From a virus (lineage: Duplodnaviria > Heunggongvirae > Uroviricota > Caudoviricetes), in the IMG/VR virus record IMGVR_UViG_2700989509_000029: a stretch of 20,646 nt of DNA. The stretch is one strand, 5' to 3'. Position 1 is the first letter of the stretch, and every line of letters begins with the position of its first letter. The position numbers are program-made. Shown piece after piece: positions 15,001 through 18,000 of this stretch.

Positions 15001-18000
15001 ATCAACATCATTAATCGCTGTTACCAGGTCGGTACTTTCCGTGACACGGGCACCATGAAAACGAGTTTCACTCATAGCTTCAGCCCCTTGTATCCGTTAA
15101 ATGATTCGGCAACAATCATCACCCACCACGCGCGTAATCTCACCCCTGCGCCGTTCTCCCGCCACGGCGACAACAAAAAGCAGTAACCCACTCCGCACGC
15201 ACATGCGACCATGCCGCACAGGGAGGGAAAGATGACCGACACCACCATGCAATTGCTCAGACAGAGCACAGACCCCGTGAAAATGCCGGATTTTGATATT
15301 CTCGCGGAGGGGGAAACGCTGTCCGGCGTGGCAGAGCGCCTGATGAGTCTGTCACTGACCGACAACCGGGGATTTGAAGCGGACCAGCTCACCATCACGC
15401 TGGATGATGCGGATGGTCAGTTGCAGCTACCGCCACGGGGCGCGCGCCTGACGGTTCTCATTGGCTGGAAAGGAGAACCGCTGACAGAAAAAGGCACTTA
15501 CATTGTTGATGAAATCGCTCACGAAGGACCGCCGGACAGGCTGACTGTTTCAGCCAGAAGCGCAGATTTTCGGGATGAATTTAACGTTAAACGTGAGGTG
15601 TCCTGGCATGATGTGACCGTTGAGCGCGTGGTATCCGCCATCGCTCATCGGTACGGTCTGAAACCACAAATCAGCGAAATGCTGATGGATATTGAAATCG
15701 ACCACGCCGACCAGACCGAAGAAAGCGACATGTCCTTCCTTACGCGCATGGCGGAAATGCTGGGCGCAATCACTACGGTAAAAAGCGGTAATCTGTTATT
15801 CATCATGCCAGGCGGTGGCGTGAACGCACAGGGCCAGCCGTTGCCCTCGTTCGCCATCACGCGCAGCAGTGGCGATCGCCATCAGTTCCGCATTGCTGAC
15901 CGCGAAGCGTATACGGGGGTACGCGCTTACTGGCTTGATCTTAATTACGGGAAAAAGAAAAAAGTCAGCGTGAAACGCCGCAAACCGAAAAAGGAGAAAA
16001 GCAGCAGCCGTGAAGGTGACTATATGGAAGGTGCGGAAGGCAACGTGTTTGTGTTACGCAAGACTTATCAGAACGAACAGGCAGCAAGACGCGCAGCGGC
16101 GGCAAAGTGGCAGCAGCTACAACGCGGAGCCGCATCATTCTCCATCACGCTGGCACGTGGTCGTGCAGAACTCTACCCCGAAATGCATGGCACGGTAACA
16201 GGATTTAAAAGCGAGATTGATAATCAGGACTGGATTATTGCAAAAGCCGAGCACACCATTGATAACAGCGGCTTTACCACGCAGCTTGAACTTGAGGCAA
16301 AAATCCCGGAATGGATAGCGGAAACAGAGTGAGCAACTTAAATATATTAACTCGCTTATAGCACTTAACAGTCTGACATCTAGCCTTGTCACAAAAATTG
16401 CAAGCGCCATCATATTCTCTTGACTCAAGATACCAATACAAGTGACTATGTAATCTTTTATGATGTTACCTCATTTGGGTTAATATATTAAAAGGAGTTG
16501 GAAAATGTCTCTAGTTACCCGCAATGTATTCATTGATACTGAGTTTTTTGTAAAAGCAAACCTGGACTTCAACTCAAAAACTATAAAATCATTTGAAGAA
16601 CTATGTAGAAATGATGAGTTCAGGCATATTTCTACAACAATTGTAGTTAAAGAAGTTGAACGAAAAATCATAGAGCATATACAAGAAGCATTGAAAGGGA
16701 TTAACAATTTCCGACGAAAGGCTGTTATCCTCAAAGAATATGAAGATGACAATATTAAAAATCTATTTTGTGAAATTAATGAAACAGACATTCAAGAAAA
16801 GGCATTAAGCGCATTTAATGGTTTCATGGAGGACTCAAACACAACTATTGTAGATATGTCGAAGGTGGACCTCAATGAGGTTATAGACATGTACTTTGAT
16901 AAAAAAAGCCCCTTTAGTGCGAAAAAACCTAACGAATTTCGAGACGCCTTCACTCTTTTAGCAATACGTTCCGCGCTAGGAGATAATGAAAAAATTTATG
17001 TGGTTTCAGAAGACCCTGACCTAAAAGGTTACTGTGAAGACAATGATAATTTCATAATTATAGGAGCACTAAACTTACTACTAGATGATTACAACAAACA
17101 CAATGACGAAAGAACTGGATTTATAGAACGTTTTTTAGAAAGCAAAAATGAAGAAATCATACAAAAATTAACGGAAGAATTAGAAACTGCTGAAGCTTAT
17201 AATTCTTCAACATGGGAAGACTCAGAGATTGATAGCTTTGAAATTACGAACATAAGCGAATTCGAACCCAAAATAATTCATTTGGATGACGAAAGTTGTC
17301 AAATTACTTTTGATGTTACTGTTAGTTTTAATGTCACTGCCAGCGGACCTGATACCGCAAACGGCTATTATGACAAAGAGGATGGAAAATTTTATACCTT
17401 TGACACCGTATCTAATCACGAGGAGGAGGAAAAGGATTTTACAGTAGAACTAGAATTATTCTTTGAAATAGACGAAGGCCAGTTTATCAATGATGAGTTT
17501 AATTTGCACATAAATGGACTGGATGCTGGTATTGAATTTTGTGTCGATGAAAACTCATGGGAAGACTATAGATAGCTCCTCACTCAGGGAGGGCTGTCAG
17601 TTGGAATCTGAATTGGGACAACTTAGAATGGTAGCAGCACCACGTTAAGGGAGGTCGCTATGTTCCGTTGTCCGCTTTGTGGCGCATCTGCCCGTATCCG
17701 CACCAGTCGTCCGGAAAATGATTCAAACACCGTGCGGCAAAAGTATTACCAGTGTAACAATCTGGAATGCGGCGTATGCTTCTCAACACTGGAAGCTTTC
17801 CATAAATTCACATCAAAACACGCCTCCGGCGTTCACTCTTCAGAAGGTATCCCGTGGCATGAACTGCCAGCTTCACACAGGGGAAACAATCAGATGAGTT
17901 TGCCTTTACCTCAGAATTAACAGGCAGAATTGCCGGAGCAACAAAAAAGCGATAGATTACGCGCGGGTGCCTTTCGGCTGATGGTCGGAGGGAATACCCG

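Follow-up and report, generated by a model that had tools for sequence, protein, structure and literature searches.

The DNA analysed here, a window of 20,646 nt from the IMG/VR virus record IMGVR_UViG_2700989509_000029, belongs to a prophage of the genus Xuanwuvirus (P88-like Peduoviridae), as established by nucleotide similarity and gene order; its head and early region is gone. In this source element, the tail operon that begins with the sheath gene FI (minus strand) and the unit that begins with the late control gene D (plus strand) diverge from an intergenic region of 156 bp (15076–15231, 57.7% G+C). The FI/D gap is probably a bidirectional late promoter of the phage P2 type, in which a single shared box would place both units under the control of an Ogr-family activator. 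The FI and D start codons are 157 bp apart (15075 and 15232), as a first-pass annotation of the sequence had correctly stated. The D start codon is the ATG at 15232, which is preceded by a Shine–Dalgarno sequence, GGGAGGG, at 15221–15227 and to which the relatives align; an in-frame ATG at 15211 was rejected as the start, since it has no Shine–Dalgarno sequence. The earlier expectation that both transcription units need promoters here proved sound, as no co-directional gene lies upstream of either and conserved -10 elements face both ways.

The predicted Ogr box, GTTCT-cccgccacggcg-ACAAC, is located at 15153–15174, with half-sites TCT (15155–15157) and ACA (15170–15172) and a dyad centre at 15163.5. 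The late promoters of P2 depend on Ogr and share the consensus TGT-N12-ACA (PMC3931495). The box reads TcT-N12-ACA, matching five of the six core positions and nine of the ten positions of the extended inverted repeat. The first-pass annotation had reported no clean TGT-N12-ACA dyad; the exact motif is indeed absent from the gap, but an Ogr-type dyad is present. Exact TGT-N12-ACA occurs three times in the whole window, always elsewhere, against 5.2 occurrences expected by chance. A search for it is uninformative, with a count below chance, and is an unfair criterion, because the three activator sites annotated in P2 are all imperfect themselves. When one mismatch is allowed, GTTGT-N12-ACAAC has three matches in the window against 0.84 expected; only the copy at 15153–15174 is intergenic, and only this copy has -10-like hexamers 44–49 bp from its centre on both sides. 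The composite motif, comprising the box and both hexamers, was found in none of 200,000 shuffles of the FI/D gap, and a suitably placed box alone was found in 190. The gap contains one box only, the next-best match having at least four mismatches in close relatives. A weight matrix built from non-Xuanwuvirus loci only, which yields one score per orientation, gave 27.0 and 21.8 bits at 15163.5. These are the two highest scores in the window, against a shuffle maximum of 9.3 and a next match of 7.4 bits. The same matrix scored the non-orthologous P/O box of P88 at 12.2 and 7.2 bits, of which only the former exceeds the shuffle maximum.

The geometry around the box can be described by an index counted outward from the dyad centre. 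The predicted -10 element of FI is GATGAT (15115–15120, minus strand) at index 44–49, and that of D is an extended element, TG-c-GACCAT (15204–15212, plus strand), with TG at index 41–42 and the hexamer at 44–49. In the P2 record (NC_001895), one activator site (3057–3087) is annotated as shared by pO and pP, whose starts are 3016 (minus strand) and 3127 (plus strand). This site reads TGT-N12-CCA; its centre, 3071.5, is 55.5 bp from each start, so that both annotated starts lie at index 56, and its -10 elements, TAGCCT of PP and GAAACT of PO, have the same index as GATGAT and GACCAT, respectively. The starts in the window were placed at index 56 by this precedent. The FI transcript would begin near 15108, with a leader of about 32 nt to the ATG at 15075, and the D transcript near 15218–15220 (about 15219), just 5′ of the Shine–Dalgarno sequence. 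The distance between the two predicted starts is about 111 bp, equal to that in P2. As in P2-type late promoters, there is no recognisable sigma-70 -35 element and the -10 elements are weak. A consensus scan of 14700–15600 revealed no sigma-70 promoter, as would be expected of activator-dependent promoters; likewise, no terminator consensus was found in the gap, and Rfam has no match within it. The hexamer TAATCT (15135–15140, plus strand), which resembles the -10 element of the P88 PP promoter, was rejected as the -10 of the D promoter, being upstream of the box relative to D and having an index that is not conserved in other genera. Next to the D-proximal half-site is an A-tract (15175–15179, plus strand), which corresponds to roughly -44 to -40 in the predicted D promoter. 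It is partly conserved across genera at index 12–16 on the D side (0.4–1.2 bits, consensus aAa.a), and the P88 P/O box has one too, on its O side; possibly, it serves as an UP-element-like contact for the C-terminal domain of the RNA polymerase alpha subunit.

The likeness to the PP/PO module of P2 comprises a single quasi-palindromic box between divergent operons with predicted starts about 55.5 bp from its centre, weak -10 elements at the same index on both sides, the lack of a -35 consensus, a G+C-rich spacer and an encoded Ogr-family activator. The differences are that the module is located between FI and D rather than between P and O, and that its imperfect half-site is TCT on the side of the minus-strand operon, whereas that of P2 is CCA on the O side. 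In addition, a TG extended -10 and an A-tract mark the D side and are missing from P2 PO, and the starts are annotated in P2 but predicted here. The other annotated P2 sites are PF (TGT-N12-CCA) and PV (TGT-N12-CAA), and the P2 sites match four or five of the six core positions. PF controls the same tail genes from an Ogr box 57–59 bp upstream of its annotated start, but it is unidirectional and serves one operon, FI-FII-E-T-U-D, which reads into ogr late in infection. Compared with this operon, the FI–U block in the window is inverted relative to D, and therefore one box would serve both FI–U and D–ogr. The P/O box of P88 (P88 14214–14235, GTTCT-N12-ACAAC) has the same half-site pair, TCT/ACAAC, and an A-tract after ACAAC, with -10 elements TAATCT at index 44–49 on the P side and CATCAT at 45–50 on the O side; its spacer and flanks are unlike those of the FI/D box. 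A single shared PP′/PO′ site has been proposed for Stenotrophomonas phage Smp131, a P2-like phage with rearranged tail genes, where one TGT-N12-ACA-like site would serve two divergent late operons (PMC3931495). However, this host and phage are distant, the pair is P/O and not FI/D, and the site is a prediction there too.

An FI-FII-E-T-U block facing D-ogr on the opposite strand is found in P88, Shae_phiSM, SEN5, Klebsiella phages of the genera Reipivirus and Reginaelenavirus, and Enterobacter phage phiT5282H. The genera with a minus-strand FI–U block facing D are Xuanwuvirus, Senquatrovirus (SEN5), Reipivirus, Reginaelenavirus and Novemvirus (phiT5282H). The deposited record of Citrobacter phage Shae_phiSM (OR565851) carries wrong product names for at least two tail-region genes: the sheath is named ‘late control gene D protein’ and D is named ‘ogr/Delta-like zinc finger’. 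Diverged loci were taken from a genome collection by aligning D proteins against one genome per bacterial species. The sheath gene is divergent from D in all 60 enterobacterial loci with a D protein about 61% identical or more, which span Salmonella, Serratia, Edwardsiella, Erwinia, Pantoea, Klebsiella, Xenorhabdus, Photorhabdus, Providencia, Morganella and Yersinia. Among loci with D near 50% identity, 19 of 20 have the P2-type colinear U-to-D order and one has no U match. The suggestion of a special rearrangement here is thus not borne out, the inverted FI–U block facing D being the standard layout of the clade.

The best box in the FI/D gap of the 60 diverged loci has TGT in 33, TCT in 23 and CCT in three, with one locus lacking a convincing box; the D-proximal ACA is retained in 53. 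At the orthologous position, SEN5 and Klebsiella phage Kp4871-3 carry TGT-N12-ACA without a mismatch and Kp4848-1 carries TCT-N12-ACA; all three have -10 hexamers at about index 44–49 on both sides (45–50 on the FI side of Kp4871-3). When 58 loci from many enterobacterial genera were aligned on the dyad centre, information peaked at the half-sites, at xAxxAT (index 44–49, both sides) and at TG (41–42, D side); weaker D-side signals are the A-tract at 12–16 and a G+C-rich stretch at 31–39. The sheath relatives in IMG/VR were all 98–99% identical and were therefore used for haplotype variation only. In 42 haplotypes from 83 such close relatives, nine of the 12 spacer columns vary, and TTCT, ACAAC, the A-tract and both -10 elements are invariant. 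A D gene 99% identical to that of the window, with the same FI/D gap, also occurs in a record titled Vagococcus sp. WN89Y, a Gram-positive label that probably reflects contamination or a mislabelled assembly.

The predicted activator of the box is the product of an ogr homologue at 17660–17920 (plus strand), an 86-residue protein with a four-cysteine zinc finger (Pfam Ogr_Delta, E = 5e-14) and 42% identity to P2 Ogr over 53 residues; the open reading frame is intact. A homologue of ogr follows D in the four genera scanned, in phiT5282H and in 54 of the 60 genome loci; in P88, it begins 42 nt after D. The first-pass annotation had asked how the tail genes are activated. The view that their activation is a puzzle is not supported, given a one-mismatch Ogr box in the gap, perfect orthologues in SEN5 and Kp4871-3 and an ogr homologue encoded 1.3 kb downstream of D.

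P2-type late transcription depends on the activator and on the alpha subunit of RNA polymerase, as indicated by the rpoA109 phenotype. By analogy, the Ogr homologue would bind the single box, including its TCT half-site, and recruit RNA polymerase to two outward promoters that have no -35 consensus; contact with the alpha subunit is an inferred part of this activation. The leftward promoter (GATGAT) would drive FI-FII-E/E′-T-U, and the rightward one (TGcGACCAT) would drive D, with transcription probably continuing through a cargo segment with a PIN-domain gene into ogr. If the D transcript reaches ogr, positive feedback would follow, comparable to the read-through of P2 PF into ogr. A sigma-70-like sequence, TTGGAA-17-TAGAAT (17601–17629), lies just 5′ of ogr, and its TAGAAT is conserved in P88. 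It could supply the first Ogr, similarly to the promoter of its own that is annotated for ogr in the P2 record.

This sequence also bears on an alternative in which only the FI operon is activated by Ogr. Transcription of D and ogr would then start at an extended -10 promoter that needs no activator, or a promoter close to ogr would be the main source of ogr transcripts, and the D side would be early or constitutive rather than late. The TG at 15204–15205 is of a kind that can work without a -35 element or an activator, and the first Ogr must arise without Ogr, for which the site upstream of ogr and the P2 precedent offer a source. However, the D-side -10 element is at exactly index 44–49 in nearly all genera, as in P2 PO, GACCAT is a poor -10 hexamer, and D, which codes for a structural tail protein, is expressed late in P2, from PF. 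Such a division of control is considered unlikely.

Several points weigh against an Ogr-dependent bidirectional promoter. Both -10 hexamers are weak, with four and three of six matches to TATAAT for GATGAT and GACCAT, respectively; the predicted D leader is very short, about 12–14 nt; and the FI-proximal half-site is TCT rather than TGT. The weight matrix gave the P/O site of P2 itself just 6.8 bits, which is not above the shuffles. The conservation among orthologous regions is partly a matter of shared descent, and in the source element read-through from D into ogr may be broken by the 1.3-kb cargo that separates them. Finally, the P88 literature examined does not mention promoters or ogr.

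The functional element might instead be another dyad bound by another regulator, or a DNA or RNA stem-loop. The candidate is CGCCGT-N9-ACGGCG (15149–15154 and 15164–15169), a perfect 6-bp inverted repeat that overlaps the box. The orthologous regions of other genera do not contain it, and its arms occupy the most variable columns of the close relatives (15152, 15153, 15164–15166 and 15168). The repeat was rejected because these arms vary without compensating changes, leaving this explanation very improbable. Least credible is that the box is a chance match in a gap with no promoter, with FI or D transcribed by read-through, as short degenerate dyads often match by chance and a sigma-70 consensus promoter is lacking, but the gene orientation speaks against read-through and the composite motif is absent from all shuffles and conserved across genera, its spacer being the only part that varies.

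Regarding the TCT half-site, the two boxes of a genome, P/O and FI/D, are of one half-site type in each of the five genera where both are readable: TCT/TCT in Xuanwuvirus, Reipivirus and Novemvirus, and TGT/TGT in Reginaelenavirus and Senquatrovirus. The agreement within each genus speaks for TCT as the functional form of the box in the P88-like lineage and against decay. At the fourth cysteine, the Ogr motif is ECSITF, ECGLSF or LCGYCF in lineages with TGT and ECSRSF, ECSE(S/T)F or ECGV(C/G)F in those with TCT. The residue two positions after this cysteine is I, L or Y in the former and R, E or V in the latter. No single column of the compared Ogr sequences cleanly separates the TGT lineages from the TCT lineages, and shared ancestry confounds the comparison. 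Most TCT lineages have TCT only in the half facing the minus-strand operon, and this asymmetry might determine how strong the two divergent promoters are relative to each other. In two Providencia loci, both halves are changed (GTTCT-N12-AGAAC) and the Ogr motif is LCGCSF instead of LCGCTF; the double change may represent a full switch of box specificity. It is conceivable, though doubtful, that TCT reflects a lineage-specific shift in activator recognition, in which both late boxes switched together and tracked the Ogr residue, and is not a tolerated defect. The natural TGT/TCT variation paired with Ogr variants could be used for mapping DNA recognition by Ogr.

Just two Ogr boxes were found in P88, those of P/O and FI/D. 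All late genes of P88-like phages may therefore depend on two bidirectional Ogr modules, compared with three sites in P2. Activation of the tail genes in the inverted layout would then be the known P2 mechanism re-used at a second divergent junction, and the promoter model, with its coordinates, can assist the annotation of P88-like, SEN4-like and Klebsiella Peduoviridae prophages.

In a megablast search, the 9.5–16.3 kb part of the window matches Escherichia phage P88 and further records of Xuanwuvirus (a genus of Peduoviridae, the P2 family) at 94–97% identity, and the gene order of the tail region is that of P88. In complete E. coli genomes, the same prophage is located between pdxB and flk. 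The source element is a remnant without head genes and immunity in which the lysis and tail genes are kept. Its integrase open reading frame (1–933, minus strand) lacks the first ~65 nt, about 22 codons, and is fused at 934–940 to the last ~175 nt of the head-completion gene L; no complete E. coli genome in the searched collection has this junction. Compared with the intact prophage of strain M19, ~15.6 kb is absent, a loss that takes in the P/O module and the genes for immunity, replication and the head. The genes absent compared with intact relatives are C, cox, the replication genes, Q, P, O, N and M, together with the P/O late promoters; the P/O module is not in the window because the head and early region has been deleted.

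The plus-strand block at 1114–8727 contains X, the holin, M15 endolysin and spanin genes, R, S, V, W, J, I, H and G. The weight matrix found no Ogr-type promoter in the window other than that of FI/D, including none for this block, so the late promoter of X, the lysis genes and R to G appears to be lost. With the P/O module deleted, only FI–U and D-(PIN)-ogr appear to retain one. A PV-like promoter 5′ of R or V was ruled out, as there is zero intergenic gap and no weight-matrix match. The sequence GTTAC-N12-ACAAC in the remnant of gene L (about 972–993; GTTAT in P88) has two mismatches, is coding and has no weight-matrix support; it was attributed to chance.

The tail operon FI-FII-E/E′-T-U (9500–15075, minus strand) runs leftward from the FI/D gap in an order and orientation shared with P88, SEN5 and phiT5282H. 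All its genes are on the minus strand: sheath gene FI (13891–15075, Pfam Phage_sheath_1), tube gene FII (13379–13891, Phage_tube), E (12959–13324, Phage_P2_GpE) with its extension E′ (about 12795–13031), tape measure gene T (10001–12844, PhageMin_Tail) and U (9500–9994, Phage_P2_GpU). On the plus strand, D (15232–16332, Phage_GPD) encodes the baseplate hub or late control protein, which is 99% identical to that of P88. D and ogr are separated by an AT-rich cargo (16341–17619, plus strand, 34% G+C) with a PIN_12-domain gene (16505–17575, Pfam PIN_12). The cargo is bounded by the direct repeat AACTTA (16335–16340 and 17620–17625), and alignment showed that P88 has no cargo here; the insert is possibly a moron of a defence or toxin-like kind. 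At the same position, other E. coli prophages have ParA or a different cargo.

To the left of U, the 3′ part of the tail-fibre assembly gene contains a match to Rfam family IS009 (8492–8690, 190 bits). It is followed by an AT-rich segment (8728–9499, 34% G+C) with a hexapeptide-repeat acetyltransferase gene (8771–9376, minus strand); in P88, this position is occupied by an invertible alternative tail-fibre segment and a DNA invertase. Beyond ogr, there is an open reading frame for a Hok/Gef-family toxin (18112–18252, Pfam HOK_GEF, E = 4e-7), and terminator-like hairpins near it could be part of a Sok-like antisense RNA. At the flk-side end of the prophage, a gene for a zinc-ribbon protein similar to Mu Com (18479–18685) overlaps the 5′ end of an N6/N4 DNA methyltransferase gene (18630–19421), and the pair resembles com-mom of Mu.

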